Shown here: piece by piece, positions 1 through 59,947 of the stretch | How positions within the stretch are numbered: the first letter of the stretch is position 1 | How the letters are laid out: each line of letters opens with the position of its first letter | Source: Alphaproteobacteria bacterium | Lineage (GTDB): Bacteria > Pseudomonadota > Alphaproteobacteria > M2410 | Direction: 5' to 3' | NCBI GenBank assembly: GCA_030614785.1 | Contig: JAUWTJ010000001.1 | Coordinates: forward strand, 65,180-129,179 | Length of the DNA: 64,000 bases | Program-made: the position numbers and the translations under genes | The notes under the pieces: generated by a model | The model's input: only the letters and a program-made list of their open reading frames with translations | Databases searched by the model: none | What the model was told of the DNA's origin: nothing

Positions 1-21
1 GCAAAAGATTGATGAAGGCTT

Positions 22-586
22 CTACAGGCCCGGTTGCTGCCAGATCGTTCCGGGACTTTGGGAAGAACATCTCCAAAGCATTGTCTGAAATCGTGTAGGA
101 ATCTGTCTCAAAATTGATCGTCCACCCGCCAACCCTCGAAAGTTTCTGAGTGTGTTGAAGCTCAGCACTGCTACGTTCCAGATTGCCATGCAGAAGTTCA
201 AGCTGTCGTTTTTGTCGGAACATTCCGATAAATCTTTTGCCTTGGAGACGAGGATATCCGCTTCCACCGGTTTTTGGACAAAATCAACCGCGCCCGGCTC
301 ATATCTCTTCTTGCGATGATCTGGATCATGTACAGAGGCACTGACAAATACGATCAGGACATGACGGGTGTTATTTGTCGAGCGAACGATCTCTGCCAGT
401 TCGAAGCCATCCATTTCAGGCATGTTCACATCGAGCAAAATCATGCTGCAGCATAAGCCGCAATGCTTCAACGCCTGACCTTGCTTCAATGACTTCCACA
501 TCTAACTGAGGCAGAATCGATCTGATATTGGTTAAATTGGTGCCGAAATCATCAACAGCAAGTATTTTGGGTAACTCCAATTTCAC
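22..586 (-). CDS. CheY-like single-domain response regulator, apparently frameshifted. The N-terminal half (GTG at 586, VKLELPKILAVDDFGTNLTNIRSILPQLDVEVIEARSGVEALRLMLQHDF) reads to a stop at 416-418; the C-terminal half (LLDVNMPEMDGFELAEIV...VDFVQKP) is the +1-frame ORF 22..501.
   Basis: Minus-strand translation from GTG 586 (SD GGGGGTGA 4 nt upstream) gives the REC N-half with the DD acid pocket. That frame hits TGA at 416-418. The tracked ORF 22..501 begins inside the REC domain at the LLDVNMP phospho-acceptor strand and has an in-frame TAG immediately upstream (502-504). The two halves overlap over 416-501, so a single-nt indel near ~436-445 is implied. Confidence 0.55.
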
Positions 587-623
587 AACATCACCCCCGA
601 AAACACGTAAACACTTTAACTCT

Positions 624-7379: not shown

Positions 7380-8492
7380 TCACGCACCAACTGCTCGTTT
7401 CGCATCTTCCTGACAGGCTCTGGCAATCTCCTGTGCCATATGAGAGAGGCTGTGCTGCTTCATCACGGCCCCGGTTTCAAACGCGGCTTTCGGCATGCCA
7501 TAAACCACACTGGACTCTTCATCCTGACCAAGAGTTACCCCCCCGGCCTCGCGAATTTCCAGAAGTCCCCGGGCACCGTCACGCCCCATGCCTGTCAAAA
7601 TCGCCGCGACAACACTTTTGCCACCCAGCCTGGCCACCGATTCAAACAGGACATCAACAGAAGGCTTGTGACCGGAGACCTTGTCGCCGTCCGAGATTCT
7701 ACAAACAAAATGCGCACCGGATCGATCGAGCTGCAGATGCCTTCCGCCGGGCGCTATGTAAACCTGGCCAGGTAGAATTCTCTGACCATCCGTCGCTTCG
7801 AAAACTTTCAGCTCCATCTTCTTGTCAAGACGATCCGCAAAGGCCCCGGTGAAACTTTCCGGCATGTGCTGCGTGATGAGGATCGGCGGCATGGTTGCCG
7901 GCAGGGCCGTAAGCACCGCCTGAATAGCCTCAACACCGCCGGTCGATGCACCGATGGCAACAATTTTCCCGGAGGAAAAATAGCCACTACTTCCAAGCTG
8001 GACTTTCCTCGTCGGAATCTTGTCCAGCCTTTTGACATTTGCCCGCGCCGCATGCTTGACTTTCTCGACGATTTCGGCGGCCTTATCCAGCATACCGTCC
8101 CTTTGATCGCCGGATGGCTTTGGAATGAAATCAACCGCGCCAAGCTCGAGAGCCTGCAGCGTCAGAGATGCGCCCTTTTGCGTGAGCGTCGAAATCATCA
8201 CAACAGGCATAGGTCGCAAGGACATGATCTTCTCAAGAAAAGTGATCCCGTCCATTTTGGGCATTTCAACGTCCAGCGTTATAACGTCGGGATTGAGTTC
8301 TCTGATCTTTCGCCGCGCGACGATCGGGTCGGGCGCATAGCCCACAACCTCGACTTCCGGGTCTGCCGACAAAATCGAATTCAACATTTGGCGCATGAGC
8401 GCTGAGTCATCCACAATCAGAACTTTTGTCTTGCTCACTGTCTCAATCCTCATTCTCGTCAAACAGTTCAATTGAGTCTTTATCCGACTCAT
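7380..8492 (-). CDS. cheB: Chemotaxis response regulator protein-glutamate methylesterase CheB (alternative start at 8453, MRIETVSKTKVLIVDD).
   Basis: N-terminal REC (VLIVDDSALMRQML...VITLDVEMPKMDG) plus C-terminal methylesterase (VAIGASTGG, ILITQHMP). Confidence 0.9.
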   Translation of the reverse strand: MSRIKTQLNCLTRMRIETVSKTKVLIVDDSALMRQMLNSILSADPEVEVVGYAPDPIVARRKIRELNPDVITLDVEMPKMDGITFLEKIMSLRPMPVVMISTLTQKGASLTLQALELGAVDFIPKPSGDQRDGMLDKAAEIVEKVKHAARANVKRLDKIPTRKVQLGSSGYFSSGKIVAIGASTGGVEAIQAVLTALPATMPPILITQHMPESFTGAFADRLDKKMELKVFEATDGQRILPGQVYIAPGGRHLQLDRSGAHFVCRISDGDKVSGHKPSVDVLFESVARLGGKSVVAAILTGMGRDGARGLLEIREAGGVTLGQDEESSVVYGMPKAAFETGAVMKQHSLSHMAQEIARACQEDAKRAVGA

Positions 8493-9102
8493 TTCCGGTC
8501 AGCGAACTACGATATCGAGCCTCTGCTTTCGCCACTCTGTCCTGCCGCTCATCAGACCTCTCAACGAACTTTCGTTGGACTTTTCCGCTATCAGCATAAA
8601 AATGTATTCGCCGAGCATACCGGCCGCCAAGGTCATGCGATGCAACCTCAATGCCTTCCTTACTCATATAGTCCAGAGAAAATCGCGCATTGTTGTCCCC
8701 TATCATCTGGCTGGATTCTATAACGTTGCCGCCGCCGAAAAGTTTGACAATCAGATCCTCTTTTCTTGACCCTGTGGAAAAGAAAGCATTGAACAAGGAC
8801 TCCATGGCAAAATGGCCAAACCGCAGCGAAAACCCGGCCCCGCCCCAGTCGCAATCCTCATCACCAGGCAGCATAAAATGATTCATTCCGCAAAATCCTG
8901 TTCTTGCATCCCGCACACAGGTCGACACACAAGATCCAAGCGTCGTAGTCAGCATTTCATTACGCTCTCGAGTAATATACTGCGTACCAGGAAGAATCTT
9001 GATAACCCATCGGTCATACCTCTTGTCGAAGTATCGCGACAGCATCTCCGACGGCGTCTGACCGCTCTTCCTTTTTGATGAAGTAGACAGCACATTGCTC
9101 AC
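8443..9102 (-). CDS. cheD: Chemoreceptor glutamine deamidase CheD.
   Basis: LGSCVSTCVRD...GMNHFMLP motif characteristic of CheD; sits between cheR and cheB. Confidence 0.85.
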   Translation of the reverse strand: MSNVLSTSSKRKSGQTPSEMLSRYFDKRYDRWVIKILPGTQYITRERNEMLTTTLGSCVSTCVRDARTGFCGMNHFMLPGDEDCDWGGAGFSLRFGHFAMESLFNAFFSTGSRKEDLIVKLFGGGNVIESSQMIGDNNARFSLDYMSKEGIEVASHDLGGRYARRIHFYADSGKVQRKFVERSDERQDRVAKAEARYRSSLTGNESDKDSIELFDENED

Positions 9103-9105
9103 ACC

Positions 9106-9975
9106 TTACTCCATCTTTTCGTAAACTGTTCGACCGACCATCTTGTAATTATCCAGCACACCCAGGAGACTTTCAGCATGCCCGGTATAAAGGTACCCCC
9201 CGACTTTCAGCTGGCGGTCAAATCTCTTGACCAATTTTTCCTTGGTTTCATCGTCGAAATAGATCATCACATTTCGGCACATGATCGCATCGAAGATGCC
9301 ATCCATCGGCCAGGGGGACAGGAGGTTCAATTGCCTGAAGGTGACGAGGCGCCGCACATCATCACCCATTTTCATCTTATTACCGGAAACGGAAACAGCC
9401 TTGCCAGACAGACGGTTAAGCAATTTTGGTGGCAGATCAGAATATTGACTGTGTGAATACTCGGCATTGCGCGCCTTTGTCAGAATATTGCTGTCGAGGT
9501 CTGTTGCAAGAATTCGAACATCGCATTTTTCCAGAGCCGCCAAATAAGCCATCAGTGTCAGGGCTATAGAATAGGGTTCCTCACCTGATGAGCAGGCTGC
9601 CGACCAAATTCGAAACTTCGATCTACCGGCTCCTTTCGCCTCAGCATCCAACTGGGGAAGAAAGACATCCTTCATGTGAATAAAATGATGCGCCTCTCTG
9701 AAAAATTTGGTGTGGTTAGTCGTCAGGGCATTGATAAAATCTTGAAATTCCTCGCTGCTGTCATCTTCTAACAACGCACAATAGTCGCGAAAAGACTCCA
9801 GCTGCAAATGACGCAGACGTTTGGACAGACGTCCATAGACCAGGTTTCTTTTTTCGTCCGAGAGGGCAATCCCCGCCTTGTCATGAACAAGGTCGGCGAT
9901 AACGCGGAAGTCTCGATCTGTAAATCGATACTCCCGCGCTTCCTCGTTTTTGGCCTGTAAGGTCGATAGAACCAA
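9106..9975 (-). CDS. cheR: Chemotaxis protein methyltransferase CheR.
   Basis: CheR N-terminal helical domain (FRVIADLVHDKAGIAL), FFREAHHF, IWSAACSSGEEPYSIA SAM-binding motif. Confidence 0.9.
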   Translation of the reverse strand: MVLSTLQAKNEEAREYRFTDRDFRVIADLVHDKAGIALSDEKRNLVYGRLSKRLRHLQLESFRDYCALLEDDSSEEFQDFINALTTNHTKFFREAHHFIHMKDVFLPQLDAEAKGAGRSKFRIWSAACSSGEEPYSIALTLMAYLAALEKCDVRILATDLDSNILTKARNAEYSHSQYSDLPPKLLNRLSGKAVSVSGNKMKMGDDVRRLVTFRQLNLLSPWPMDGIFDAIMCRNVMIYFDDETKEKLVKRFDRQLKVGGYLYTGHAESLLGVLDNYKMVGRTVYEKME

Positions 9976-13142: not shown

Positions 13143-15305
13143 TCAAACTGCCTCTGCTTCAATTTTGACAACATCTGCTTTAGACGTATCTGTCTTCATG
13201 ATGTCTGCACCGGGATCCTTGCTGCCTCCGGAGCTGTGGAGAGTCACGCCTTCAAAACTGTCAACATCGACAATTAGCGCGACCATTCCGTCGCCCAGAA
13301 TCGTGGCGCCGGAAACCCCCGGGATGATCTTGTAGTTCTCTTCCATACTTTTGATGACGACCTGTTGCTGGCCGAGCAATTCATCGACGACAAGGCCGAT
13401 TTTCTTGCCTGACGCCAATTCCACAAGGACCACCAAAGCCTTGGCCGGATCGGTTTCCGCGCCCTTGACGTCAAACACCTGCGACAGGTGCACAAGCCGC
13501 AAGACCTCGCCACGGATATGCATAACTTCAAGGCCGTCCGTCAGCTTTCGAATTGAACCTGGTTCAGGACGCACCGTTTCGATAATCGTCGTCAGCGGCA
13601 GGATATATTTCTGGGTTCCAACTGAAATCAACATGCCGTCAAGAATGGCCAGTGTGAGGGGTAGCGTCAGAGTGAAGGTTGTCCCGACACCCATTTCCGA
13701 CTCGACCATTGTACGCCCGCCCAGAGCAAGTATGTTCCGGCGCACCACATCCATGCCGACGCCGCGCCCGGAGACCTCGCTGACCTCTTCGGCTGTTGAG
13801 AACCCCGGATGAAAAATAAGTTCATCAACTTCTTCAGGCGTCAGGTTCTGGTCTTTTGCAACAACACCGCGCTCTATTGCTTTTTCAAGGACCCTGTCGC
13901 GGTCAATGCCGCGTCCGTCGTCTGACACCTGAATCAGAATTCGTCCTGAGCGATGCTCTGCGGAGAGTTTGATCGTCCCTGTTTCCGGTTTTCCTGCGGC
14001 AAGGCGTTCTGCCGGAGGTTCAATCCCGTGATCCAGAGAGTTCCGGATCATGTGCGTTAACGGATCGCCCAGTTCTTCAATGACGGTTTTGTCAACTTCG
14101 GTCGTTTCACCGCAGGTTTCGAGGTCAATTTTCTTTCCGAGCTTGGCGGACAGATCTCTGACGACCCGAGGCATGCGCGAAAACACCGATTTAACCGGCT
14201 GCATCCGAATAGCCATAACGCCTTCCTGCAGGTGCCGCGTCCTGAGTGCCAGATCTTCAAGACCCTGCAGTTCAACAGCCGCGCGCGGACCAAGAGCCAG
14301 GGAAATATCCTGAACGACCATGGACTGAGCAATCACCATCTCGCTAACCTGGTTGACCAATCGGTCAACCCGGTCGAGATCAACTCGAATTGAGGTAATT
14401 TGAGAGCCGGCTTTCTGTTTGCCGGACTTTGAAGCAGAGGTGGTCTTCTGCGAGACCGCTTCGGTTTCCGCCACCGCAGATGGCATCAACAGCTCTGGCT
14501 CTTCCACACTGGCTGCGGTTTCCGCATCTGTCTCGCGGGCTACACCCGCTTCCTCAGTAATCTCAAGATCACAATCATCAATGACAAACTCGAAGACCTC
14601 GTCAACATCTGCTCGCGAGCACGAACTTTCAAGCGTCAACAGCCAGTGAAAATAGGCATCCTCAACTTCCATCGTTCTGAAATCGGGAAGCTTCGTGCTA
14701 TCAAGCACGATGTCCAGCTGCCCCAAAGATCGCAGCTCGCGAATAATCAGGAGGGGTTCATTGGCATGCCTGAATAATTCCGCCTTGGGACGGAAGGCGA
14801 TCGAGTAGATCGTATCGGCGGAAGCAGTATCGTCAGAATTTCCGTCAGTGTCATCGAGCAGGTCTTCAGTCGCCGCACCGCTTGAGCTTTCACCATCACC
14901 GGTTCCTGACAACAGGTCTTCGAGAAGCGCTCTGACGTCTTCGTCTGAACCACCTTCAAATTCAACATCCTCTTCTGCCGCAGCAACAAGATCTGCCAAC
15001 ACATCACCGCCACGGATCATGATGTCGATAACATTCTGATTAATGTCTAGTTTGTCCTGGCGCATTTGATCCAGCACCGATTCAAATATGTGCGTATAGG
15101 CGACAAGACGGTCAAACTTGAAGGCGCCCGCGCCGGCCTTCATAGAGTGGACCGCTCGAAAAATGGCGTTGAGGTCTTCAAAATCGATCGCATCGACAGT
15201 TAGTGTGGTGACCTTATCTTCCAACACCTCCAGGAGCTCGCGGCACTCCTCGAAATACGTCTTCTTGAATATCGCATAGGGATCTTCATCAGGAAGATTT
15301 GACAT
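13143..15305 (-). CDS. cheA: Chemotaxis histidine kinase CheA. The ORF track extends to GTG 15329, but ATG 15305 has a strong AGGAGGAG SD.
   Basis: P1/HPt (AIFRAVHSMKAGAGAF), dimerisation, HATPase_c (GRGVGMDVV, DDGRGID) and C-terminal CheW-like P5 domain. Confidence 0.9.
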   Translation of the reverse strand: MSNLPDEDPYAIFKKTYFEECRELLEVLEDKVTTLTVDAIDFEDLNAIFRAVHSMKAGAGAFKFDRLVAYTHIFESVLDQMRQDKLDINQNVIDIMIRGGDVLADLVAAAEEDVEFEGGSDEDVRALLEDLLSGTGDGESSSGAATEDLLDDTDGNSDDTASADTIYSIAFRPKAELFRHANEPLLIIRELRSLGQLDIVLDSTKLPDFRTMEVEDAYFHWLLTLESSCSRADVDEVFEFVIDDCDLEITEEAGVARETDAETAASVEEPELLMPSAVAETEAVSQKTTSASKSGKQKAGSQITSIRVDLDRVDRLVNQVSEMVIAQSMVVQDISLALGPRAAVELQGLEDLALRTRHLQEGVMAIRMQPVKSVFSRMPRVVRDLSAKLGKKIDLETCGETTEVDKTVIEELGDPLTHMIRNSLDHGIEPPAERLAAGKPETGTIKLSAEHRSGRILIQVSDDGRGIDRDRVLEKAIERGVVAKDQNLTPEEVDELIFHPGFSTAEEVSEVSGRGVGMDVVRRNILALGGRTMVESEMGVGTTFTLTLPLTLAILDGMLISVGTQKYILPLTTIIETVRPEPGSIRKLTDGLEVMHIRGEVLRLVHLSQVFDVKGAETDPAKALVVLVELASGKKIGLVVDELLGQQQVVIKSMEENYKIIPGVSGATILGDGMVALIVDVDSFEGVTLHSSGGSKDPGADIMKTDTSKADVVKIEAEAV

Positions 15306-15319
15306 TGTGGAAACTCCTC

Positions 15320-15685
15320 CTATGGACACACTTTGTTGACGACTTGCAGAAGTTTTTCCGGATCGAAGGGCTTCACTATCCAGCCTGTTGCACCGGCAGC
15401 TCTGCCTTGCTGGCGTTTCTCGTCATCCGTTTCCGTGGTAAGCATGAGGATTGGCGTCGCCTTGAAGTCCGCTTGCCCGCGCAGCTCCTTGACGAGAGTA
15501 ATGCCATCCATAATCGGCATATTGATATCTGTTATAACAACATCAATGCGCTTGCCGGAAACCTTGGACAGAGCATCCTGTCCGTCTACGGCCTCCAGGA
15601 CGTCAAATCCGGCGCCTTTTAGCGTAAAGGCAACCATGTCCCGCATGGTCTTGGAATCATCGACAGTAAGAATCAACTTGCTCAT
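15320..15685 (-). CDS. cheY: Chemotaxis response regulator CheY.
   Basis: 121-aa stand-alone REC (ILTVDDSKTMRDM...VVITDINMPIMDG...KPF). Confidence 0.9.
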   Translation of the reverse strand: MSKLILTVDDSKTMRDMVAFTLKGAGFDVLEAVDGQDALSKVSGKRIDVVITDINMPIMDGITLVKELRGQADFKATPILMLTTETDDEKRQQGRAAGATGWIVKPFDPEKLLQVVNKVCP

Positions 15686-16032
15686 TTATCAGCACTCCAC
15701 AAATCCAGTTCCGCAGCCAGGCCAAGATCAGAAAATGATCGGGCCATAACCTCTGACGGGTCTTTAAACACCACATCCACATTTTCCCCGGCGAAACTTT
15801 GGCGAGCCGCCACAAGTAGCTGGATGATCGAGGTATCCATCCGTTCCACCCCTGAGCCATCAACAGTGAGGCGATCCACATCACATGCAGCACGCAGAAT
15901 CTCTTCTTTGACCCGCGTTGCGCTCGAAAGATCACAGTATGAAGGCAACTCAAAAAACCCTTTGGGGTCAGTCGCCTTCGATGATGCGTTTACGACTTTT
16001 TCTGTCGCTTCATTCTTTGCAACTTTAGCCAC
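15682..16032 (-). CDS. STAS-domain protein, first gene of the che operon (like the small orf that precedes cheY-cheA in alphaproteobacterial che operons).
   Basis: 116 aa; STAS-like LTVDGSGVERMDTSIIQLLVAA; GTG start; 4-nt overlap with cheY. Confidence 0.6.
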   Translation of the reverse strand: MAKVAKNEATEKVVNASSKATDPKGFFELPSYCDLSSATRVKEEILRAACDVDRLTVDGSGVERMDTSIIQLLVAARQSFAGENVDVVFKDPSEVMARSFSDLGLAAELDLWSADK

Positions 16033-16418
16033 AACCTCTCCTGATCGTTATCAGCCGCTAAAAAGCCCCGTGAACTGGAAACCGGATATTTCAGACTCGG
16101 GGCGACTCCCTAATACCGTAGCTTAGAGACTAAACTACAATGCCCTTAAGATTGGGTTACGCACTGGCATTTCCATCGCAGATTATTCGTATGAAATTTT
16201 GTGGAATCAGTGTACTGATGCTAGTAGGAAGCCATCAAGTCTTTGCGCGAAAACGGCGGCGAGAGGTCGTTCTTCATTGCGTTTGACGATCAATCGCATT
16301 TACAAATCACTCTACACAATTCGCTCTGTAGCGCGCTCTGAGCCGCAGCAGGTGGGTGGTCAATGGAACTAAACCTGCAATCAAACAGGCTGGTCCTTGC
16401 CGCCGCAATCCCTGTGAG

Positions 16419-16934
16419 CTACCCCCTGGCCTGAAATTCATCCAGTCGCGCAAAGCCCTGAAACAGGAGCCCCTTGAAGGCTTCGTCCATTTCTGTTTGC
16501 CCGGCAGCTTCAATCATGACGCCTGCAAGGATCATATAGGTGGCCGTCCACGCTTCTTTAACGGCTGGAGTAAAGGCGGCACCAAGCCCCTGCTCCAATG
16601 TCCACAAAAGCGCAGTAGCGACGGTTTGATAGTGAGACTCCTTAACCCCGAATTTCGCATGGCTGGCCCCAAGAGCCTGTACCGTCGGTATAATCTTGTC
16701 CAGATTTCTCAGGCTGGACACCGAAACGCCCAATGTGGCCATTAACTTGCGACCCTGCTCAACCATATCGCCCTTAAAGAGGGGGCGCAGGGAGGGATCA
16801 AGCTCGAACAATCGACTGTAGAACAGGTCAGCGGCCTGCTCCTTGATTTTTGCCACCGCCTGAAACGAGGTTTCCACAAGATCGATTTGTTTCGGAGTCA
16901 AACTCATTTTATTGATCTTCCATAAACGGGACAC
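16419..16934 (-). CDS. Single-domain sensor-type globin (protoglobin/GCS-globin-like), probable start MSLTPKQ at 16907.
   Basis: Globin-sensor signature ([42 protein letters not shown]); ~45% identity to the two globins at 37.9-39.3 kb. Confidence 0.75.
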   Translation of the reverse strand: MSRLWKINKMSLTPKQIDLVETSFQAVAKIKEQAADLFYSRLFELDPSLRPLFKGDMVEQGRKLMATLGVSVSSLRNLDKIIPTVQALGASHAKFGVKESHYQTVATALLWTLEQGLGAAFTPAVKEAWTATYMILAGVMIEAAGQTEMDEAFKGLLFQGFARLDEFQARG

Positions 16935-17491
16935 AAACAGGTTTTGGGTCGAAAAATTGCCCTTCTCTACAGGTGGGCAGCTAATTCATTCTCGCTTTTT
17001 ATATTAGATACTTAACAACATAATCGTGAAAAATCCGTTACGATCGGTTGTTGCGAATGCTTTGCAACCAGGACCGATCAGTAGCCTTTCTCGACTGCAT
17101 TGTCAGCAGGGCCCGTGTTGCGGAAAAAGAGCCCTGCGTTGGATGCCATATACAAGGCTCCTGCGCGCGCGACATTGATATAGTTTTGGTGTGTAGCGTG
17201 AACTGGATCGAAGAGGCTACTACGGGATTTTACTGCCTTCTCAATCAACTCCACTCGGACGGCTCCAACCTCGCCCTAAATCAACAAGGGACGAAATGAG
17301 ATCGACGGATACGACATTAACACAGCCTCCTCAGGCACGAAACAGAGGAGACTAATCACCTCCCGGCACATCGATGAATCGCAAAAGTACCAAAAAGTAG
17401 ACATTTCAGATTCCGCTGCCTGACACGAAAACTCCTGCGCTCGATTGGAACGCCTAACCCTTTGATCTAATACATCTATCTGGAAAGAAAA

Positions 17492-17568
17492 TGGTACCGC
17501 CTCCCTGACTTGAACAGGGTACCTCTAGATCCACAATCTAGCGCTCTAACCGGGTGAGCTAAGGCGGC
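17492..17568 (-). tRNA. tRNA-His: tRNA-His (anticodon GTG), 77 nt including encoded CCA; no G-1 and A73 discriminator.
   Basis: Hand-folded cloverleaf: acceptor GCCGCCT/AGGCGGT, D-arm GCTC/GAGC, anticodon stem CTAGA/TCTAG with loop TTGTGGA, T-arm CCCTG-TTCAAGT-CAGGG, then ACCA. Confidence 0.8.
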
Positions 17569-17719
17569 ACATCGTCAAAGATCCGGGGTCCGGACCACAA
17601 GGGGCAGCAAAGCCCCTGAACGGAACGGGACATTATCTCTTTGAAAACTGGAATTCAAGCGCCGTTTTCAAGAAAGAGATGGGCAATGGCAAAGCAGCGG
17701 ATCAGCCAGTCTGATCGGA

Positions 17720-18235
17720 CTAACCGAGCCGCCCTGCGACGGCTTCCTGAAGCTCCTTCAACAGGATCTTGCAATGGTCTTCCGAGCCGTCCGGCCTGGA
17801 GAACTCCGCAGCCGCGAAGGCAATGGCGCTCAGGTGGGGCTTGATCAAAGCCAGATCTCCGTCGTCCATCAGTCCTTCTTTCATTGCCAGACGATCCAGC
17901 GATTTTGCGATGTTTCCGACGATATCCAGACCGCAGGTGCCGCAGAAGGCATAGACCTGTGCTGCGAGCCTCGATAGCTCGCTGCGCAGCACTTTGTGAT
18001 CGCCTGAGCGCTCCCTTTCCACGACGTCCTCAATCTGCGAAAGATGGTGTATCACCTCTTCCAAACAGTCACCCTTCATTGCAAGTGCCGCCTGTTGCGC
18101 CCTTTCCATGGCACGAGGTGGCAAGCCTTTGTCGCCGGCTTTGGACTTAAGCAGGTTAGGACGCTCAATGACTTTGAACGAAGCCCCGCCCTCCCGGCCG
18201 GCTTGTGGTTTTCGCTTCACCTGTGTGGTCATCAT
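17720..18235 (-). CDS. Hypothetical protein, helical, downstream of a receiver gene; an HPt-like role is possible but unsupported.
   Basis: 171-aa ORF with coding-like composition; no convincing HxxKG HPt motif. Confidence 0.4.
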   Translation of the reverse strand: MMTTQVKRKPQAGREGGASFKVIERPNLLKSKAGDKGLPPRAMERAQQAALAMKGDCLEEVIHHLSQIEDVVERERSGDHKVLRSELSRLAAQVYAFCGTCGLDIVGNIAKSLDRLAMKEGLMDDGDLALIKPHLSAIAFAAAEFSRPDGSEDHCKILLKELQEAVAGRLG

Positions 18236-18345
18236 CTTCCCTCAAGTTAATAGTGGTCTTCGCGGTAGTATCAAAACCTGGCTTCCAGCTGCTCTTTCAG
18301 TTTATTGCATATCGGCTCATGCCCGCTCATCCGCCAGCGCTGGCA

Positions 18346-18873
18346 TCAGTCAATAAAAGACACGTCGCGGCGTTCATCTTTAGCCCAGTCCGCAAGACTG
18401 GAACGCCGACGGTCTGGCCCAAAAAAACTCTTTGTCTCGACAAAATCCCGCGGCCGCTCGATCACCATCTCAATGCGTTTATAGAGCGCCTGGGGAGACA
18501 CCGGTTTGGCCAGAAACTCTGTCGCCCCTGCCTGGCGAGCCGCCAGGATGTTGGTCATTTCTGTATGGCCTGTCAGCATGATAATCGGCACAAAACGGTT
18601 GGGGCTCTGATCATCGCTACGCAGCGTCTTGATGAATTCAACGCCATCCATAGGTGCCATATTATAATCGCATATGATGAAGTCCGGTTTGAGACTGGTG
18701 AGTACCTTTAGTGCAGACTCGCCACATTTGGCCGTGTGAACATCGGCAAATCCAAACGCCAGCAAGAGCGCGCGCAGGAGCTGCTGCATGTTGGTACAAT
18801 CGTCAACGATCAAAACCGTCAATCGTTCAAAGTTATATGACATCTCAGCCCCTTCCGAATTTCGTGGTATCAC
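18346..18873 (-). CDS. Single-domain response regulator (REC) with a short C-terminal extension.
   Basis: LTVLIVDDCTNMQQL...DFIICDYNMAPMDG...LAKP. Confidence 0.8.
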   Translation of the reverse strand: MIPRNSEGAEMSYNFERLTVLIVDDCTNMQQLLRALLLAFGFADVHTAKCGESALKVLTSLKPDFIICDYNMAPMDGVEFIKTLRSDDQSPNRFVPIIMLTGHTEMTNILAARQAGATEFLAKPVSPQALYKRIEMVIERPRDFVETKSFFGPDRRRSSLADWAKDERRDVSFID

Positions 18874-29006: not shown

Positions 29007-30668
29007 ATGAATAGAGCTGACCGGCGCAAGACCGCAAAAACCAGTAAAGAACGAATAGACGAGTATAACGAGGCCGGACGTCAAATGATGATGCCGGGCG
29101 GCGATGCCCGTCAGGCCCAAAGCCTTTTTCGTCAGGTTCTTTCTGTGGATCCAGGCGATGCCCATGCAAACCATTATCTGGGCGTGATGGAGATGTGGAC
29201 CCGTAACTACAAGAAGGCTGAAGAACTCTTTACCCGCTCTCATAATAGAGACCCGCACAATTCAATGGTAGCCAACAATCTTGGCCTCGCATTGCACGAA
29301 CAAGGGCGACTCGCCGAGGCTATGGCTGCGTATGAAATAGCTCTCAAGTCTGATTCGAACAACGTGGAGGCCCGGGTCAATTTAGCCAGAGGTCTGCTGC
29401 AAACCAACCAGCGGGATCGCGCACTGGCAGAAGCACAAAAAGCGGTGACCATGAAGCCTGAATTCGGAACAGCGCAATTTATGCTGGGTACCATTGCACA
29501 GGAAATGGACGAGATCGAACTCGCCAGAAATGCACTTCAAAAAGCCGTAAGTCTCATCCCGGGACACAGGGAAGCCAACTTTCGTCTCTGTCGTTTGGAA
29601 TTTGATCCTGCAGATCCGGAAGGCTACCTCAAACCTTCAGCAACAGCTCTTGAAGCCAATGCAGACAATGCCAGCGCCGCCCTGACCTGGTCAGAACTCC
29701 TCATGGGCGCGGGCAAGTTTACCGAAGCAAAAGAGGTTCTCGAAAAACATGTTGGAACAGATGCACTGGCCGTCAAATCAGGTATTCTGACCAACCTGGC
29801 CAATGCCTATGCCAATCTCGGTGACTATGACACTGCAATCACATGGCACAAGAAGGCGATAGCCACCGACATAAATGACCCGGGGAACCGCTTGTTTTAC
29901 GGCCGCACCTTGCTGCAATCAGGTGACTACAAGGCGGCAGGTGAGCAACTGTGGAAGGCAAGGCAGGGATCACCCTTTTCCCAGGACCTCATTGCCATGT
30001 TGATGCTTGCGCAAAAGCTTGCTGGTCAAACCGATGCCAGTGTTTCAGATCCTGACGATCTCATTAGCGTTTCCGCTCTTGAGCCCAAAGAAGCCTGGTC
30101 TTCCGTTGAAGACCTGAACAAATCTCTTTTGAAAGATCTGGCCAGCATTGAGAAACATAGCGTTCATCCCTTTGACAAAAACCGCCGCCATGCGGACAGT
30201 ATCTGGGAAACAGTCCTCGGAATGCAAGACGTTGAGTCGATTGCTTGTCTCAGAGATTTGATTCAGGAGAAAATTATCAGCTACGTTACTGATATGCCGG
30301 ATGATATGGACAATCACCCACTGTATGGCGGCAAGAAATTCGGGCCCGGCCCCTCAGGATCCTTCGTTGAGACAGTTAATAATTTCGAGGATTTTTCCTA
30401 TGCGATTGACCAGCAGGGATGGTTCCGGATGATTTATTTCATTGATGTCCCGAAGGCCTGCGACGATGGCGACAAAAGAGCCGGTTGGCTGCGGTTTGGC
30501 GTTCCACATTTTGATACTGTGAACACCGGTAAACCCGACCACGAAGTCAAGCCCGTCGCCGGTCAAATAGTCATTTTCCCGGCTTTCTATTGGCACGGGT
30601 TCAACGCAATGATCGCCGATGAAGAATTGACCTTCCTGTCCGTTCAGGTCAGAAACGCAGTCACATAG
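29007..30668 (+). CDS. TPR-repeat protein with C-terminal putative 2OG-Fe(II)-oxygenase-like domain.
   Basis: N-terminal TPR repeats (YLGVMEMWTRNYKKAEELF, ALHEQGRLAEAMAAYEIALK); C-terminal region with HxD...H-like spacing (PHFDTV...FYWHGF). Confidence 0.55.
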   Translation: MNRADRRKTAKTSKERIDEYNEAGRQMMMPGGDARQAQSLFRQVLSVDPGDAHANHYLGVMEMWTRNYKKAEELFTRSHNRDPHNSMVANNLGLALHEQGRLAEAMAAYEIALKSDSNNVEARVNLARGLLQTNQRDRALAEAQKAVTMKPEFGTAQFMLGTIAQEMDEIELARNALQKAVSLIPGHREANFRLCRLEFDPADPEGYLKPSATALEANADNASAALTWSELLMGAGKFTEAKEVLEKHVGTDALAVKSGILTNLANAYANLGDYDTAITWHKKAIATDINDPGNRLFYGRTLLQSGDYKAAGEQLWKARQGSPFSQDLIAMLMLAQKLAGQTDASVSDPDDLISVSALEPKEAWSSVEDLNKSLLKDLASIEKHSVHPFDKNRRHADSIWETVLGMQDVESIACLRDLIQEKIISYVTDMPDDMDNHPLYGGKKFGPGPSGSFVETVNNFEDFSYAIDQQGWFRMIYFIDVPKACDDGDKRAGWLRFGVPHFDTVNTGKPDHEVKPVAGQIVIFPAFYWHGFNAMIADEELTFLSVQVRNAVT

Positions 30669-30818
30669 AATGGGTGCATTCGGTGTTTGTGATGCAGAAC
30701 CGATGAACCAAGGTTAAGCCTGGCATTTGCTGGTAGAACCTCGGGATCACCGAAGAAAAGATAAACGAGGCACTGGTTGAAGCCCGACTCAAGTTCGGTC
30801 CGAACAACTGAATATGAA

Positions 30819-30843
30819 AGGGCCGCCGTTTTCCGGCGGCCCC
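30819..30843. terminator. Bidirectional rho-independent-terminator-like hairpin between convergent genes.
   Basis: GGGCCGCCG-TTTT-CCGGCGGCCC stem-loop, A/T-rich flanks on both strands. Confidence 0.45.
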
Positions 30844-30874
30844 ATTAGTCAAAACGACTTGAAGAAGCCCAAAA

Positions 30875-31411
30875 TCACTTTTCTACTTTTGCGTCTTCGT
30901 CTCCTTCATCCAACTCAAAATCAAATTCCAGTTCAATTCCATGTTCCTTGAGCTGTTTGCGCACGTCTTCTTCATTGTTACCTTTGATGACAATAACCTT
31001 CTTGTGTGCACCCTCATGCTTCACAGGTTTATCGCCTTTCACGATGAAGACGTACTCTCCATTGGATTCAACGGTCTCGCCGTGATCATCGTCGTATTTC
31101 ACGACCCATTTATGCTTTTTGCGGTCAGAGCCAGCATGACCAAAAAAGTCATGGTCGCCCATTCCAGGAATACCATCGGCCTTCAACAATGCCAGTTGCT
31201 CCTGCACCTCCGGCGATGCCGCATCTCCTTCTATATGGATGGGCTCTTCGCCATCCCGTTTGACAACAATACTGACTTTCCTTTCCGCATCACCATGATC
31301 ACCATCGACCGTGACAAAGATTTCATGATCAGTTTCGGATGCCATTTGTGTTGTTTTACATCCGGAAACAAAAATTGCCCCGGCTGCCATTAGCGCTATT
31401 GCAATACGCAT
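30875..31411 (-). CDS. Acidic lipoprotein of unknown function.
   Basis: Signal peptide with lipobox (AIFVSGC); His/Asp/Glu/Lys-rich mature region. Confidence 0.55.
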   Translation of the reverse strand: MRIAIALMAAGAIFVSGCKTTQMASETDHEIFVTVDGDHGDAERKVSIVVKRDGEEPIHIEGDAASPEVQEQLALLKADGIPGMGDHDFFGHAGSDRKKHKWVVKYDDDHGETVESNGEYVFIVKGDKPVKHEGAHKKVIVIKGNNEEDVRKQLKEHGIELEFDFELDEGDEDAKVEK

Positions 31412-53483: not shown

Positions 53484-53592
53484 CTAACTATTGTCATCCT
53501 CGGGCCGGACATAGTCCGGAGCCGGGGATCTTCTAACAATAGAATTCGCTGTGAGAAGATCCCCGGCCGCGCTCCGCGCGCCGAGGATGACA
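53484..53592. repeat. ~110-bp nested-palindrome (REP/RIME-like) structured intergenic element.
   Basis: Outer 12-bp IR TGTCATCCTCGG (53484-53495) / CCGAGGATGACA (53573-53584); inner 12-bp IR CCGGGGATCTTC (53514-53525) / GAAGATCCCCGG (53547-53558); plus small palindromes CCGGACATAGTCCGG and GCGCTCCGCGCGC. Confidence 0.6.
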
Positions 53593-54774: not shown

Positions 54775-54788
54775 GTCCCTCGCTCCAT

Positions 54789-54829
54789 ATAGTTCAATAT
54801 TAAACCACTATAGTTTAATATTGAACTAT
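54789..54829. promoter_or_regulatory. Perfect 17-bp inverted repeat (ATAGTTCAATATTAAAC-N7-GTTTAATATTGAACTAT) in the divergent promoter region between the Tat-nitroreductase-like gene and the large nucleosidase-fusion gene; operator-like.
   Basis: Seen directly in the sequence; AT-rich, 17/17 matching arms. Confidence 0.5.
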
Positions 54830-54941
54830 TGGCAAGTTAAACCAATAATTGCCTTCTTGACTCTAAATTCCAATACAGCTTCTATTTGCTCCTACCCACA
54901 AGAACCCTTTTACATACACATCTCTCACCCAGGAATCCTAT

Positions 54942-57900
54942 ATGAACGCCAAACCTTACTTCGACCTTCTTCTCATTGTTCCATTGGAGGAAGAGCTCGA
55001 GGAAATTCTGAAGGTATTTCCACACCTAAGTGATTTGTCGACAACAGAGCGATTGGTGGTGACCGTAGACTCCGGTGACCCGAAGCTTTCGATCTTATTG
55101 ACTCAACTTCCCGCGATGGGGAGGAGCGAAGCTGGCGACGCCACTCGTGCAATTGTCGGACAATATAATATAGGCATCATAGTCTGCATCGGAATCGCGG
55201 GAGGGTTGTCAAAGGATCTAAGGCTCGGTGACGTATGCTACAGTGAAAATATTCTGGATGTTTACGAACAAAGTTCCGTGACCGACGCCGAGGATGGTGA
55301 CGGGATTACAGTTCATCTCAGCCCGAACCAATTTCGGACACCGCGACAAATCACCATCGCGCTAAATTTCCTCAGATCCAATCCGGAAATTAACTCGAAG
55401 TATAAGGAATGGCAACAAACCAGTGAAAATCAAGCAAAGGCGTTGCTAGGCGACTTGTCCGCGGAAACAACTGGAACCCACACTCCGAAGAGCAAAAATG
55501 GAAACCTTGTATGTGGTGCTGTTAGCAAGAGTTCAGCATACAATGCCAAGCTGAAAGCAATGGACCGGAATGTCTTAGCAATTGAAACAGAGTCTGGTGG
55601 TGTCTTCGAGCAAGCTGAAAAACACAATATAGCAGCACTGACCATCAGAGGCATATCTGACTTAGCGGACTCAAACAAATGCTCATTAGAAACATCCACA
55701 AAGGGAGTCTATCGAAAGATCGCCGCCGCAAATGCGGCATCGTTCCTTCGGTCTCAGCTTGCAAACCATTATTTTACAGACCTTTTACAAGACTTCCGAA
55801 ACAAGAAAGATGGTGAAGAAGCTCCTGAACTCTTCACAAAAGATGTCTCTCCGAAGAACACCATACTTGAATCACTTAAGCAATCTGAGCAAGAGATTCA
55901 AATTGCACTTGGCGAGCTATCGCCGGAATACAAGCTCTTGGACAAAGGCTACAGGCTTCCCACACCAAGAATTAGATCCAGTGTCTTCGAGAACCTATTC
56001 GGCGAAACCGACGACCGCACAATCGAAGTCAGAGAAGCACTTGAGCGACACAAAGTGGTGTTGGTTGATATTCCGCGAACATATCCAGATGAAAGCTTAC
56101 CATGGGTAATAGCGGAAAACCTGCTGACTTTCGAGCTAAATGGAAAACAATCTATACCCATTGTTCTTGATGGAAATATTTTGCGCCCGCCCAAGCTTGG
56201 CATAAAGTCACTTGCGGGCGAGTACGATCTTGAAGCACTTCGCAACAATGCAGGGGCACAATTAGTCTTCATTGTGTCAAGTGTCCAGCTGACTTCGTCA
56301 ACAAAGCGCAACTTCCTTATAAGCCAGATGGAAGAATTTGAGGAAGCGCAGTTTGTTTTAATTGCCAGAGGACAAGAACAGACTCTTTCTGACCAAGACC
56401 TAGTCAGGTCCGTAGGCGCGGAAATTCACGAGCTTTGTGAGGTCTCTTTCTTGTCCATATCACAATTTCTGGAGTTCAATTTTGACCTCGAATCCAGTGA
56501 AGCGCAAGTGATTGCTCTTCGTCTATTCAACACTTTCGAGCAGTTTGATTTGGTTGCTCACCCTACGTACTTTGCCGGAATTCCTCGAGAAACCCTTTAT
56601 GCACTTTTGCAAGCAAATCGAAGAGCGGAGCTGATTCAGTTGGCAGTAGATGGATTCCTGTCATTCGTTGTGGCGGAGGACACATCGGATATCACGTTAA
56701 GTCGAACAACCAGATCTAGATTCTTAAGCAACCTAGCGATTGAGATGGATGTTGAGAAGCGTTCCTTTTCTCAAGCAACACTCATTAAATTCACAAAAGA
56801 CTTTGCTACAAAATTCGATTTTGAGATTGAGCCACTAAAGTTCGTTCAAAATTTCGTGGAAAAGGGGATTCTCAGGTTTGACGACAACAACGTTTCGTTT
56901 ACTCTACCCTTTATTAGGTCATATCTACTCGCATCCGCTTTGAATAAAGACCCTAGTTTGGCTGCGAAATACTTTGCACCATCAATTGACGATTTTGATT
57001 TCGCCGCCTTCGACTTGTATGCAGAGCTGGGAGCATCCGATGCGGTAGTAGGTTCCATCGTTGAGAAACTAAAATCTCACGCGACCAGTCTTGGAGAGAA
57101 ATCCGCAGCCATTCTTTCAAATGACCTTCGACCAAATCTCGTGAATGTCTACGAGAAAACAAAGACAATTCAAGATGGAATACAACGAAAAATTGAAGAA
57201 CTAAAGAAGAATGAAGATGATCATGAGACAAAACAGAAGTTCCTCGACCTCGCCAATCGAGCCGGGAAAAAGCTGAGCAGTGAACGAAATGAAAATCAGA
57301 AGAAAGCTACCCCCAAGAAATCTAAAGATGACAAAGAGTTCAATGAACTCGTGTCCGATTGGCTCATTGGAACAGTTCTTATCGGAGGGGCAGCAGAAAA
57401 TCTCACTGGAAGTATCAAACAAGATCTGGCGGGAAGTTTGATAGTTATTGCAAACGAGATTATAGATCATATGACTGATAGTTCAGCAAGAATTGACTTT
57501 GTGAAATCAAAGAGCGAACTACTTGCCTCGCCGGAAGTACTGGATTTGGTAAAAAATGCTCCGAGCGATGCGGAAAAAGAAGATATCCTTGTCCATTTTT
57601 CCAATTTGATTGACATCGTTGAGTTCAGCTTTCTTGCGCATCCGTTTCGAAGGGTGATGCAACATCTGTGTGAACAATCACGCAATAGAGTGTTATCAAG
57701 AAGCATAGAAAAGGCAACCTTCGAAGATGGTGGTATTCGTGAAATCATCCGCTGGACTTGGTTGATTGATCTAGACAGCAAGAAGGGCAAGGTGGGCATT
57801 TTGGAACATATCAAGAAGCTGCCCATTGCTCCGTTCTTTAGGTTTGTGTTAGCAACTCATTTCCTCAACAGAGTTTACTGGAGCCATGGGGACACTCAGA

Positions 57901-58007
57901 GTCGGGGCGACCTTCTCACTGCGGCAAACGAAACCATTCATCTACTAGGTAAAGGTATTGATAAGAAAGAGCTCTTGGCAATAGTTTCGAAGGTAAAGAA
58001 TTCATAG
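54942..58007 (+). CDS. Large (1021 aa) protein: N-terminal MTA/SAH-nucleosidase (Pfs/PNP_UDP_1) fold domain (~240 aa) fused to ~780 aa of unknown, largely alpha-helical sequence; lower-GC gene.
   Basis: N-domain aligns by eye to E. coli Pfs: LLIVPLEEELEEI (IGIIGAMEEEV), IIVCIGIAGGLSKDLRLGDV (VIINTGSAGGLAPTLKVGDI), LAIETESGGVFEQAEKHNIAALTIRGISDLAD ([32 protein letters not shown]). No Walker A anywhere in the rest. Gene GC ~48% versus ~59% in the flanks. Confidence 0.75.
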   Translation: MNAKPYFDLLLIVPLEEELEEILKVFPHLSDLSTTERLVVTVDSGDPKLSILLTQLPAMGRSEAGDATRAIVGQYNIGIIVCIGIAGGLSKDLRLGDVCYSENILDVYEQSSVTDAEDGDGITVHLSPNQFRTPRQITIALNFLRSNPEINSKYKEWQQTSENQAKALLGDLSAETTGTHTPKSKNGNLVCGAVSKSSAYNAKLKAMDRNVLAIETESGGVFEQAEKHNIAALTIRGISDLADSNKCSLETSTKGVYRKIAAANAASFLRSQLANHYFTDLLQDFRNKKDGEEAPELFTKDVSPKNTILESLKQSEQEIQIALGELSPEYKLLDKGYRLPTPRIRSSVFENLFGETDDRTIEVREALERHKVVLVDIPRTYPDESLPWVIAENLLTFELNGKQSIPIVLDGNILRPPKLGIKSLAGEYDLEALRNNAGAQLVFIVSSVQLTSSTKRNFLISQMEEFEEAQFVLIARGQEQTLSDQDLVRSVGAEIHELCEVSFLSISQFLEFNFDLESSEAQVIALRLFNTFEQFDLVAHPTYFAGIPRETLYALLQANRRAELIQLAVDGFLSFVVAEDTSDITLSRTTRSRFLSNLAIEMDVEKRSFSQATLIKFTKDFATKFDFEIEPLKFVQNFVEKGILRFDDNNVSFTLPFIRSYLLASALNKDPSLAAKYFAPSIDDFDFAAFDLYAELGASDAVVGSIVEKLKSHATSLGEKSAAILSNDLRPNLVNVYEKTKTIQDGIQRKIEELKKNEDDHETKQKFLDLANRAGKKLSSERNENQKKATPKKSKDDKEFNELVSDWLIGTVLIGGAAENLTGSIKQDLAGSLIVIANEIIDHMTDSSARIDFVKSKSELLASPEVLDLVKNAPSDAEKEDILVHFSNLIDIVEFSFLAHPFRRVMQHLCEQSRNRVLSRSIEKATFEDGGIREIIRWTWLIDLDSKKGKVGILEHIKKLPIAPFFRFVLATHFLNRVYWSHGDTQSRGDLLTAANETIHLLGKGIDKKELLAIVSKVKNS

Positions 58008-58258
58008 GAGCGAAGGCATGCAAAATGGAATAATGCAACCTGAGAAATTCACCCCATCCCCGGTCGCTTCCGACAGATCAATGTTCCTGCCCCTGCCGCC
58101 AGCAGCCTTTTATCCTCCGACCACACGCGATTGCTGACGCCTCCGCGCCAGTATGCCGCCCAGGGGCAACTTCCTTCTCTTGCAAAATTCCCCTATACTC
58201 ACCCCAAAGTGATTTGCCCCCTCCGCCCCGCGACACCCGCCAAACTGAAAGTCCATGA

Positions 58259-58978
58259 ATGAACGTTTTTGCACGCCAGCTGATGGGTGCTTTCAAGGAT
58301 CTGACGCCCATACTGGTCGTCGTTGCGTTTTTCCAGTTCGTGGTCTTGCGCCAGCCGGTCGAGGAGCCGCTCTCCATCCTGGCCGGGCTCGTCGCAGTGG
58401 TTGTGGGCCTCGCGCTGTTCATTCAGGGGCTTGAAACATCGCTCTTCCCGCTTGGCGAGACAATGGCCGTGGAATTTGCTCGCAAGGGTGTCATTGCGTG
58501 GCTGCTGCTCTTTGCTTTCGCCCTCGGTTTCGGGACCACCGTCGCGGAGCCTGCCCTGATTGCCGTGTCGCAAGAGGCCGCCCGGGTCCGCGCCGAGGAG
58601 GGACATCTGATTGGCCAGGCCGCCATCGACAGCTATGCGCGGGGCCTGCGCTACACCATCGCAATCTCCGTCGGCCTGGCGCTGGTCGTCGGCGTCATGC
58701 GCATCCTCGGCGGCTGGCCGATCCACTATTTCATCATATCGGGCTATCTCATCATCGTCACGATCACGCAATTCGCGCCCGACGACATTATCGGCATCGC
58801 CTATGATTCCGGCGGGGTCACGACCTCGACCATCACTGTGCCGCTGGTGACCGCGCTCGGTATCGGTCTCTCCACGGTCATCCGCGGGCGCAACCCGATG
58901 ATCGACGGCTTCGGGCTGATCGCCTTTGCCAGCCTGTTCCCCATCGCCTTCGTTCTCGTCTACGGCATGGTGGTCTGA
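58259..58978 (+). CDS. DUF1538-family membrane protein (copy 1).
   Basis: 6 TM; conserved [24 protein letters not shown] motif shared with the next gene. Confidence 0.7.
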
Positions 58979-58981
58979 CCC

Positions 58982-59947
58982 ATGCTCCATGCCCTGTCTC
59001 TCATCCTTGCCTCTTTCCTTGCGACCATTCGGGACATCCTGCCGATCATCCTGATCCTGGGATTCTTCCAGGTCTTTGTGTTGCGCCAGACAATCCCGAA
59101 CCTGAAAGGTGTCCTGACAGGTTTTCTGATGGTCATCGCAGGCCTGTCACTTTTCCTTGTCGGTCTTGAACACGCACTCTTTCCCCTTGGCGAGATGATG
59201 GCGACGCAGCTGACTGATCCCGCCTTTATTGCGCCGGAGGGAACAGGGGCAGAAGGGCTCAATTGGACTGACTACGGCTGGGTCTATATTTTTGCCGCCG
59301 CCATCGGGTTTTCAACCACCCTGGCCGAGCCCGCCCTCATCGCCGTTTCGATCAAGGCGCGTGATGTCTCCGGCGGCGCGCTTGATCCCATGGGCCTGCG
59401 CCTTGCAGTTGCCCTGGGCGTCTCTTTCAGCGTCGCTCTCGGCGCTTTCCGCATTATCACCGGCACGCCGCTAGCCCTTTATATGGTCTTCGGCTATCTG
59501 ATCGTCATCATCCAGACTGTCTTTGCCTCAAAGACCATTGTCCCGCTGGCCTATGATTCAGGCGGCGTGACCACCTCCACTGTAACCGTACCGCTGGTAA
59601 CCGCGCTCGGCCTCGGGCTCGCAACCACCGTACCGGGGCGCAGCCCGCTGCTTGACGGCTTCGGGCTCATAGCCCTCGCCAGCCTGTTCCCAATGATCAC
59701 CGTAATGGGCTATGCTAAACTGGCAGAAAAAAAGACCCTCGAAAGAATGAGCGGCTTTGTTTCTGCCCTTCTCAACAAGGACCAAGACAATGAAGTTCAA
59801 ACTGATCATGGCGCTGATCTCGGACGAGAAGACGAACGAGGTTTGCAAAGCCGCGAGGACCCTGGGCGCGACGGGGAGCACAGTCATAAACTCGGCGCGC
59901 GGCGAGGGACTGAACCCGGCGAAGACCTGTCTGGGCCTGACGCTTGA
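58982..59947 (+). CDS. DUF1538-family membrane protein (copy 2) with a ~70-aa hydrophilic tail that overlaps the PII-like gene in another frame.
   Basis: Paralog of the previous gene ([24 protein letters not shown]); the ORF continues to 59947. Confidence 0.65.
   Translation: MLHALSLILASFLATIRDILPIILILGFFQVFVLRQTIPNLKGVLTGFLMVIAGLSLFLVGLEHALFPLGEMMATQLTDPAFIAPEGTGAEGLNWTDYGWVYIFAAAIGFSTTLAEPALIAVSIKARDVSGGALDPMGLRLAVALGVSFSVALGAFRIITGTPLALYMVFGYLIVIIQTVFASKTIVPLAYDSGGVTTSTVTVPLVTALGLGLATTVPGRSPLLDGFGLIALASLFPMITVMGYAKLAEKKTLERMSGFVSALLNKDQDNEVQTDHGADLGREDERGLQSREDPGRDGEHSHKLGARRGTEPGEDLSGPDA

Follow-up and report, generated by a model that had tools for sequence, protein, structure and literature searches.

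Bacterial NLR-like (Avs) receptors and effectors with ATP-nucleosidase activity are recent discoveries that join prokaryotic and eukaryotic innate immunity, and PNP domains at the N termini of Avs/NLR-like proteins have been found to cleave ATP (Rousset et al. 2023, bioRxiv 10.1101/2023.01.24.525353). Among STAND immune receptors, KpAvs8 carries degenerate Walker A/B motifs, read by its authors as an absence of ATPase activity, and its family responds to a phage protein (PMC13581612). Inactive STAND modules (iSTAND, iSTAND2 and a form linked to GT4 and HEPN) have also been described in multi-gene conflict systems (Kaur, Burroughs, Iyer and Aravind 2020, 2021; PMC7159879, PMC8195603). Here, we analyse a 64,000-nucleotide stretch of an alphaproteobacterial contig (JAUWTJ010000001.1 of assembly GCA_030614785.1; hereafter the window, with positions counted from its first letter), in which a low-GC insertion encodes a single protein of 1021 amino acids. 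The protein combines an N-terminal PNP-fold nucleosidase domain, a body with the predicted fold of a STAND nucleotide-binding oligomerization domain (NOD), plus an all-alpha C-terminal domain. We consider it fairly probable that this gene, hereafter the PNP-NOD gene, is a horizontally acquired, single-protein NLR-like (Avs-type) conflict or anti-phage receptor with a nucleosidase effector and a NOD devoid of a P-loop.

At the N terminus, the Pfam model PNP_UDP_1 (PF01048) matches residues 10-268 with an E-value of 1.1e-15 (58.1 bits against a cut-off of 25.1), and it matches all 30 homologues tested. Alignment to solved methylthioadenosine/S-adenosylhomocysteine (MTA/SAH) nucleosidases (MTAN) pairs PLEEE with GAMEEE, ETESGG with EMEATA (E217 corresponding to MTAN Glu174) and IRGISDLAD with VRAVSDLAN, where D240 corresponds to MTAN Asp197 and S239 is also aligned. 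Across a conservation set of 30 homologues with 39-87% identity, P14, L15, E16 and E18 are conserved in at least 90% of the sequences, and T216, E217 and G219 as well as R236, G237 and D240 are invariant. Since the catalytic positions are thus invariant or at least 90% conserved, the domain looks, on sequence grounds, like an active adenine-specific N-ribosyl hydrolase. The Glu-rich strand and the ISDLAD aspartate had already led the initial annotation to propose a Pfs/MTAN fold, which the Pfam match, the MTAN alignment and the conservation pattern uphold. PADLOC models of immune effectors match as well, specifically PDC-M60C (E-value 4.5e-14, 50.1 bits) and the CBASS PN-superfamily effector (E-value 7.9e-13, 45.7 bits). 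In NCBIfam, the model that matches best is NF004079, an equivalog for MTA/SAH nucleosidases whose match extends along the whole domain, but its 48.6 bits lie far below the cut-off of 169, and the domain is therefore not a housekeeping MtnN.

The body that follows this domain had been described in the initial annotation as a non-NTPase fold of no described family, a view that we revise. Pfam nSTAND_NTPase4 matches residues 608-663 with 35.8 bits, above its gathering score of 27, and does so in 25 of the 30 homologues; the NCBIfam model DS8_antiphage (NF053861) matches residues 593-669 weakly (27.3 bits against a cut-off of 790). An AlphaFold2 (AF2) model of residues 300-1021, built from an 82-sequence alignment (predicted local distance difference test score 85.8; predicted template modelling score 0.85), displays a six-stranded alpha/beta domain (residues 343-499), a helical domain, a winged helix in which helices are accompanied by a beta-hairpin at residues 644-653, and a long all-alpha region. 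The figures tabulated for this model are 12.3 for the NLRP3 NACHT, 11.5 for NOD2, 10.8 for NLRC4 (416 residues aligned), 10.6 for NAIP, 10.2 for Avs4 and 8.9 for Avs5. As modelled, the body is a module of the STAND/NACHT fold made up of a nucleotide-binding domain (NBD), a helical domain (HD) and a winged-helix domain (WHD), the tripartite NOD organization of STAND receptors. Within the helical domain lies the most conserved block of the family (residues 540-580), which contains the GxP-like motif AGIP and whose patterns served for finding loci. Effector and C-terminal domain occupy opposite ends of the one polypeptide (PNP at residues 1-285, all-alpha domain at residues 680-1021), which supports the defence-like effector-sensor architecture that had been proposed. 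The C-terminal domain, presumed to be the sensor, is family-specific and without a structural neighbour: it is not TPR-, LRR- or WD40-like, resembles no solved Avs sensor and includes a charged, low-confidence stretch at about residues 745-800.

The NBD of this body departs from that of a working NTPase at the P-loop itself. A Walker A motif is missing from the whole of the 1021 residues, in line with the missing NTPase motifs of the initial annotation. At the P-loop position, the AF2 model has the unit of strand (residues 372-377), loop (378-385) and helix (386-395), yet the loop reads P-R-T-Y-P-D-E-S: it has the length of GxxxxGK[ST] with both glycines and the lysine replaced. Y381, P382 and W388 show no variation, and almost none is seen at D383 and S385. 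Among 308 family proteins fetched, a set that takes in a second sub-clade at about 27-30% identity, the NBD is in every case free of Walker A and has a P-R-T-Y-P-D-x-S loop instead. At residue 446, on the strand in the Walker B position, 30 sequences divide into 14 with Asp, 11 with Glu, three with Asn and two with Ser (25 of 30 acidic), the serine being that of the window protein and its 87%-identical closest relative. The following FVLIAR strand (pattern FxFITR) seems to resemble the 'hhhTSR' motif of NACHT proteins. Where the WHD of NACHT and NB-ARC proteins supplies the ADP-contacting histidine, the family appears to read [ST]-L-P (TLP or SLP), and the histidine of 'FxH' is apparently lost, as judged from an alignment of motif patterns. 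The NOD thus looks like a family-wide pseudo-NTPase in terms of the modelled fold. With the glycines and the lysine of the P-loop gone, canonical ADP-to-ATP exchange or hydrolysis is probably not what drives assembly, and the apparent loss of the WHD histidine likewise points to assembly without a canonical nucleotide switch. The NOD would then be a nucleotide-independent scaffold or a binder of another ligand.

The gene is complete, with an ATG start and an AGGA-type ribosome-binding site 8 nt upstream of it, and its product is identical to protein P0001 of the NCBI assembly GCA_048633335.1. Its composition sets it apart from its surroundings: the gene has a GC content of 44.6% and a GC content at third codon positions (GC3) of 0.448, against 57-62% GC in the flanking genes and a GC3 of 0.65-0.81 in eight neighbouring genes. 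Along the contig, the GC profile falls from 0.62 to 0.41-0.48 across about 54775-58050 and then returns to about 0.60. The left edge of the low-GC tract lies to the right of a native inverted repeat, and its right edge comes before the remnant of a former neighbouring gene (both described below). Neither mtn nor salvage genes were found near the gene, and scanning both sides of the insertion for direct repeats or an attachment site returned only short matches of the quality expected by chance. The PNP-NOD gene was acquired horizontally, as a single-gene insertion. The initial annotation had rightly called it a foreign low-GC insertion of one gene with no metabolic partners, and the flat composition of a native core gene, which it had weighed as the alternative, is not seen; its estimate of about 48% GC, some 10 points under the flanks, caught the drop and understated its size. 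The composition of the replicon is patchy elsewhere too, with 48-50% GC at window positions 1-4000, 8250-9250, 15250-18750 and 30000-31000 (window mean 53.8%).

Beyond the window, the body matches 317 clusters at 50% identity among 1.84 billion representatives, and in full-length members it nearly always starts at about residue 300. It is always fused to PNP in the 150 best of these clusters, and shorter matches are truncated fragments in which a portion of the PNP domain is still present. A survey of 185,579 species genomes recovered 37 loci, patchily distributed and nearly all in Alphaproteobacteria (Sphingomonadales, Hyphomicrobiales, Rhodospirillales and Rhodobacterales). The gene is poorer in GC than its surroundings, by 10-30 points, in about 26 of 38 loci, as in Inquilinus (0.42 versus 0.72). 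An all-against-all comparison of neighbours in the 38 loci revealed no conserved partner gene, with no cluster present in more than five; the homologues are thus not embedded in salvage operons, the metabolic setting that the initial annotation had considered. Neighbours include resolvases or recombinases (four loci), integrases (two), DUF4062 proteins (two) and a CBASS-type phospholipase (one), and type I restriction-modification (RM) genes (hsdS-hsdR) lie 65-131 bp upstream on the same strand in three loci of Erythrobacteraceae (L011, L012 and L013; Qipengyuania and Tsuneonella). Beside the copy in a Devosia metagenome-assembled genome, a divergent gene (L017:6798-9632, minus strand) encodes another conflict-type protein with a PNP domain, of 945 amino acids, in which a GT4-conflict glycosyltransferase at the N terminus is joined to PNP_UDP_1 at the C terminus. 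A mobile setting is that of a distant copy (27% identity; L040:7165-10220) on the mobilisable Acetobacter oryzifermentans plasmid NZ_CP011122, flanked by IS5 and IS66 insertion sequence (IS) elements, MazEF and BrnT. This copy is frameshifted near 8000-8019 into an open reading frame of 284 amino acids for PNP and one of 676 for the body, which may reflect decay to a pseudogene, an error in sequencing or a real two-gene form. No match to the family was found in phage genomes. PADLOC models reach the family through the PNP domain only, with no match to an Avs or bNACHT model. Separately, a class II (B12-dependent) ribonucleotide reductase gene lies upstream in four unrelated genomes (L008, L014, L021 and L025), a curious pairing with a nucleotide-destroying enzyme, and this adjacency could mark an insertion hotspot.

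By analogy with characterised systems, the protein most likely belongs to a general kind already known, the anti-phage suicide sensors, and we infer both its defence activity and its substrate. Its C-terminal domain would recognise a cue that comes from the invader; by the example of characterised Avs families, a phage protein is the most likely one. Binding of the cue would release autoinhibition, so that the NOD oligomerises and brings the PNP domains together. PNP-fold enzymes form active sites across subunit interfaces, as in the dimers of MTAN and the hexamers of DeoD, and proximity would for this reason switch the enzyme on. Once assembled, the enzyme would cut an abundant adenine nucleotide between adenine and ribose, with ATP or dATP the most likely substrate as for Cap17 and DtcC, and the resulting nucleotide depletion would abort the infection.

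Several observations weigh against this receptor reading. A profile of the NOD region finds no match among all PDB sequences at E-values up to 10 (the full-length profile retrieves MTAN and PNP enzymes only), and the STAND assignment therefore rests on the fold and on the Pfam match in the WHD. The correspondence to the P-loop comes from predicted topology and fold matches, not from a residue-level structural alignment. The sensor-1 arginine, the GxP-like motif and, in most homologues, the Walker B acid are kept, and some ligand may bind. Defence, toxicity and substrate are all predictions here, and the immune-PNP models (45.7-50.1 bits) score no better than the housekeeping MTAN model, so that profile scores do not place the domain in the Cap17/DtcC clade. 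Neither the 150 best clusters nor the second sub-clade, which was reached from the plasmid copy, contain a body without PNP or with another effector, and the modular swapping of Avs proteins is thus absent. As for the defence islands raised in the initial annotation, some loci have RM, recombinase, IS or conflict genes as neighbours, and many are flanked by core genes (purL, rpoD, nrdJ, lepA) instead.

Different models can be envisioned for the nucleotide site. Under the most conventional one, the protein would be a canonical ATP-dependent Avs/NLR-like receptor whose site is functional and too divergent to recognise. The clearly STAND fold, the arginine at position 476 in 28 of 30 sequences, the acid in the Walker B position in 25 of 30 and the invariant GxP-like motif all suit such a receptor, but the loop in the P-loop position lacks glycine and lysine in 308 of 308 proteins and instead holds an invariant tyrosine and proline and a nearly invariant aspartate, Ser446 takes the place of the Walker B acid in the window protein and in the relative with 87% identity, and the 'FxH' position reads TLP or SLP in the alignment of motif patterns. 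We regard a canonical switch as unlikely. At the other end stands a more radical form of the receptor reading, which we put forward tentatively and as less than an even prospect: a naturally nucleotide-independent NLR-like receptor, in which the NOD would serve as a pseudo-NTPase scaffold, the Tyr/Pro/Asp loop would plug or re-purpose the pocket and the all-alpha domain would be a previously unseen sensor. A plausible reason for such a change is that an ATP-dependent switch would be stopped by its own effector if that effector destroys ATP, which the loss of dependence would avert. If this were true, STAND signalling would be possible without the ADP/ATP switch regarded as its defining feature.

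Two further explanations concern what the protein responds to and whether it serves in conflict at all. Inactive STANDs have been proposed to keep nucleic-acid binding (PMC8195603), and the PNP-NOD protein could by extension be a nucleic-acid receptor, with the PNP domain killing the cell or releasing a base signal and the C-terminal domain serving for assembly only. Arginines are frequent in the block that the family conserves best (ANRRAEL, SRTTRxRF), which lies in the HD/WHD region and not in the C-terminal domain, and the latter is unlike known Avs sensors. Against this, the loci contain no downstream gene for an effector that could read a signal, in characterised Avs proteins it is the C-terminal domain that senses proteins, and Pfam detects no nucleic-acid-binding domain in the protein or the 30 homologues; we find this explanation doubtful, with a low probability. 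Lower still is the probability that we give to a housekeeping or regulatory adenine-nucleoside enzyme, acting on MTA/SAH, a salvage or a quorum substrate, with a large regulatory tail and no role in conflict. It would agree with the MTA/SAH nucleosidase equivalog as the best NCBIfam match over the full domain, with the annotation of homologues in public records ('nucleoside phosphorylase', 'MTA/SAH nucleosidase family') and with the core genes among many neighbours. By contrast, the score falls far short of the equivalog cut-off, no salvage gene or indeed any conserved gene accompanies the loci, the GC content is foreign in most of them, as few as 37 occur in the species genomes surveyed, the architecture is NLR-like, and some copies sit on a plasmid or beside IS, toxin-antitoxin or RM genes. 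The single-protein receptor with a nucleosidase effector is the reading that we retain.

Table 1 Positions of the PNP-NOD gene, its domains and motifs, and the elements at its borders within the window
Feature	Residues	Position	Strand	Basis
Complete gene: PNP nucleosidase, apparent pseudo-NTPase STAND NOD and all-alpha C-terminal domain	1-1021	54942..58007	+	ORF list, translation
PNP_UDP_1 (MTAN-like) nucleosidase domain, predicted effector	10-268	54969..55745	+	Pfam, PDB MTAN matches, PADLOC
PLEEELEE, N-terminal catalytic Glu strand	14-21	54981..55004	+	phmmer alignment to 3bl6_A
ETESGG, ribose-binding Glu motif	215-220	55584..55601	+	MTAN alignment
RGISDLAD, catalytic Asp motif	within IRGISDLAD, 235-243	55647..55670	+	MTAN alignment
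Alpha/beta nucleotide-binding-like domain of NOD, P-loop-NTPase topology	341-500	55962..56441	+	
Pseudo-P-loop P-R-T-Y-P-D-E-S-L-P-W	378-388	56073..56105	+	AF2 topology, conservation
Walker-B-position strand QLVFIVSS	440-447	56259..56282	+	column counts at residue 446
Sensor-1-like strand FVLIAR	471-476	56352..56369	+	R476 in 28/30, K in 2
Most conserved family block, HPTYFAGIPRETL..LLQANRRAELIQLAVDGFL	540-580	56559..56681	+	invariant columns H540 to G571
Winged-helix domain of NOD	608-669	56763..56948	+	nSTAND_NTPase4, weak DS8_antiphage match, AF2
All-alpha C-terminal domain, presumed sensor	680-1021	56979..58004	+	
Foreign low-GC tract (41-48%), gene and short flanks		54830..58050	.	composition profile, GC3
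17-nt perfect inverted repeat, 7-nt spacer		54789..54829 (arms 54789-54805 / 54813-54829)	.	repeat coordinates
32-codon remnant of the gene downstream of the L002 orthologue		58052..58147	-	tblastn 78% identity over 32 aa; DNA alignment

The islet lies beside a divergent orf390-marR operon, a widespread two-gene unit for which we found about 45 other metagenomic loci, none of them with a PNP-NOD gene. A related metagenomic genome, L002, has at the corresponding position an orthologue of the inserted protein that is 87% identical. Identity to L002 is 73% for the adjacent native orf390, 76% for MarR and 89% for the thiolase; that the islet is more alike than orf390 and MarR could stem from stronger constraint or from its more recent exchange. 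An exact empty site was not found, the nearest orf390 homologues outside the lineage being at most 61% identical, so that the absence of the gene beside the operon is supported while the junction is not fixed to the base. On the right, the remnant listed in Table 1 matches the C terminus of the gene downstream of the L002 orthologue, the rest of which is lost in the window genome, and homology with L002 resumes at about 58049; the right junction is therefore rearranged. In place of that downstream gene, two tandem DUF1538 paralogues (about 45% mutual identity) follow the islet at window positions 58259-59947.

Two repeats had been linked to the PNP-NOD gene in the initial annotation, and both exist, yet they belong elsewhere. 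In many orf390-marR operons of metagenomic origin, the orf390 homologue is preceded, at a distance of 30-55 nt, by a similar AT-rich dyad (core GTTCGATATC..), also in loci without the PNP-NOD gene (among them L110 and L069); the set of dyad loci also takes in L093, L073 and L087. The dyad upstream of the orf390 homologue of L110, for example, reads ATAGTTCGATATCAAAT...GTTTGATATCGAAC. That of the window overlaps a promoter-like site on the minus strand and differs from the L002 dyad at one position on both arms (C/G to T/A). Because like dyads precede orf390 where the PNP-NOD gene is absent, the 17-nt perfect inverted repeat is, by sequence comparison, the native operator-like dyad of the neighbouring operon and lies outside the PNP-NOD system; it is probably a MarR operator. 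We accordingly reject the repeat as an operator of the PNP-NOD gene itself, to whose promoter it had been assigned. The nested palindrome, estimated earlier at about 110 bp, spans about 100 bp at 53492-53592 and fills the spacer between orf390 and marR (outer arms of 12 nt, perfect; inner arms of 18 nt at 94%), where most other loci have a gap of about 8-40 bp; it has no apparent link to the PNP-NOD gene. It occurs as one copy within the window and could be a REP/MITE-like insertion (repetitive extragenic palindrome or miniature inverted-repeat transposable element) or a terminator.

A family with an NLR fold and an apparently live effector that has discarded the P-loop represents a natural experiment on whether such receptors need a nucleotide switch, and it would also reveal whether ATP-dependent switches are selected against when the effector destroys ATP. 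Since PADLOC sees only the PNP domain, and homologues are annotated as 'nucleoside phosphorylase', censuses of alphaproteobacterial defence probably miss this family.

Among described systems, MtnN shares with the PNP-NOD protein the fold and the catalytic residues (Glu strand, ExE, R..SD), but is a stand-alone protein of about 230 residues that is native in composition and serves in salvage, whereas the protein considered here is a 1021-residue fusion far under the equivalog cut-off. Detocs DtcC and CBASS Cap17 have in common with it the PNP-fold domain and a catalytic aspartate in an [S]D motif, and the layout of PDC-M60C (PNP at 148-405 of 407) seems to resemble that of DtcC. In their multi-gene systems, phosphotransfer or a cyclic oligonucleotide switches these enzymes on, whereas here the fused NOD would do so; no partners of the DtcA/B/C type occur in the 38 loci, and Pfam detects no receiver domain in the protein. 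DS-8 (DefensePredictor), a validated single-protein metallophosphatase-NACHT system, is alike in joining an effector to a NACHT module, but its effector is different, it needs its NACHT ATPase residue, and its model matches with 27.3 bits against the cut-off of 790. The iSTAND and iSTAND2 proteins similarly pair an inactive STAND module with an N-terminal domain that processes nucleotides or is of another effector type, in predicted conflict systems. However, these modules form the third component of MoxR-vWA ternary operons, and the PNP-NOD family is without such partners, neither MoxR nor vWA being among the top neighbour families of its loci. KpAvs8 (Nature 2026, PMC13581612) is another STAND immune receptor with degenerate ATPase motifs; in Avs8, this degeneracy affects particular homologues and EcAvs8 keeps the motifs, whereas the motif is missing from 308 of 308 proteins here, and effector and sensor differ, with no sequence relationship between the two families. 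PNP-Avs/NLR-like proteins share the N-terminal PNP nucleosidase, the STAND-fold NOD and the C-terminal sensor-like domain on one polypeptide, as well as horizontal mobility as a stand-alone gene; the PNP-NOD family is set apart from them by the replacement of Walker A with P-R-T-Y-P-D-x-S in all its members fetched and by a C-terminal domain unlike the solved Avs sensors. The PNP-NOD gene is thus a real, uncharacterised defence candidate that is less novel than first proposed: its PNP-NLR-like class is already known, and what it adds is an apparently family-wide pseudo-NTPase NOD together with a presumed sensor of no established class.

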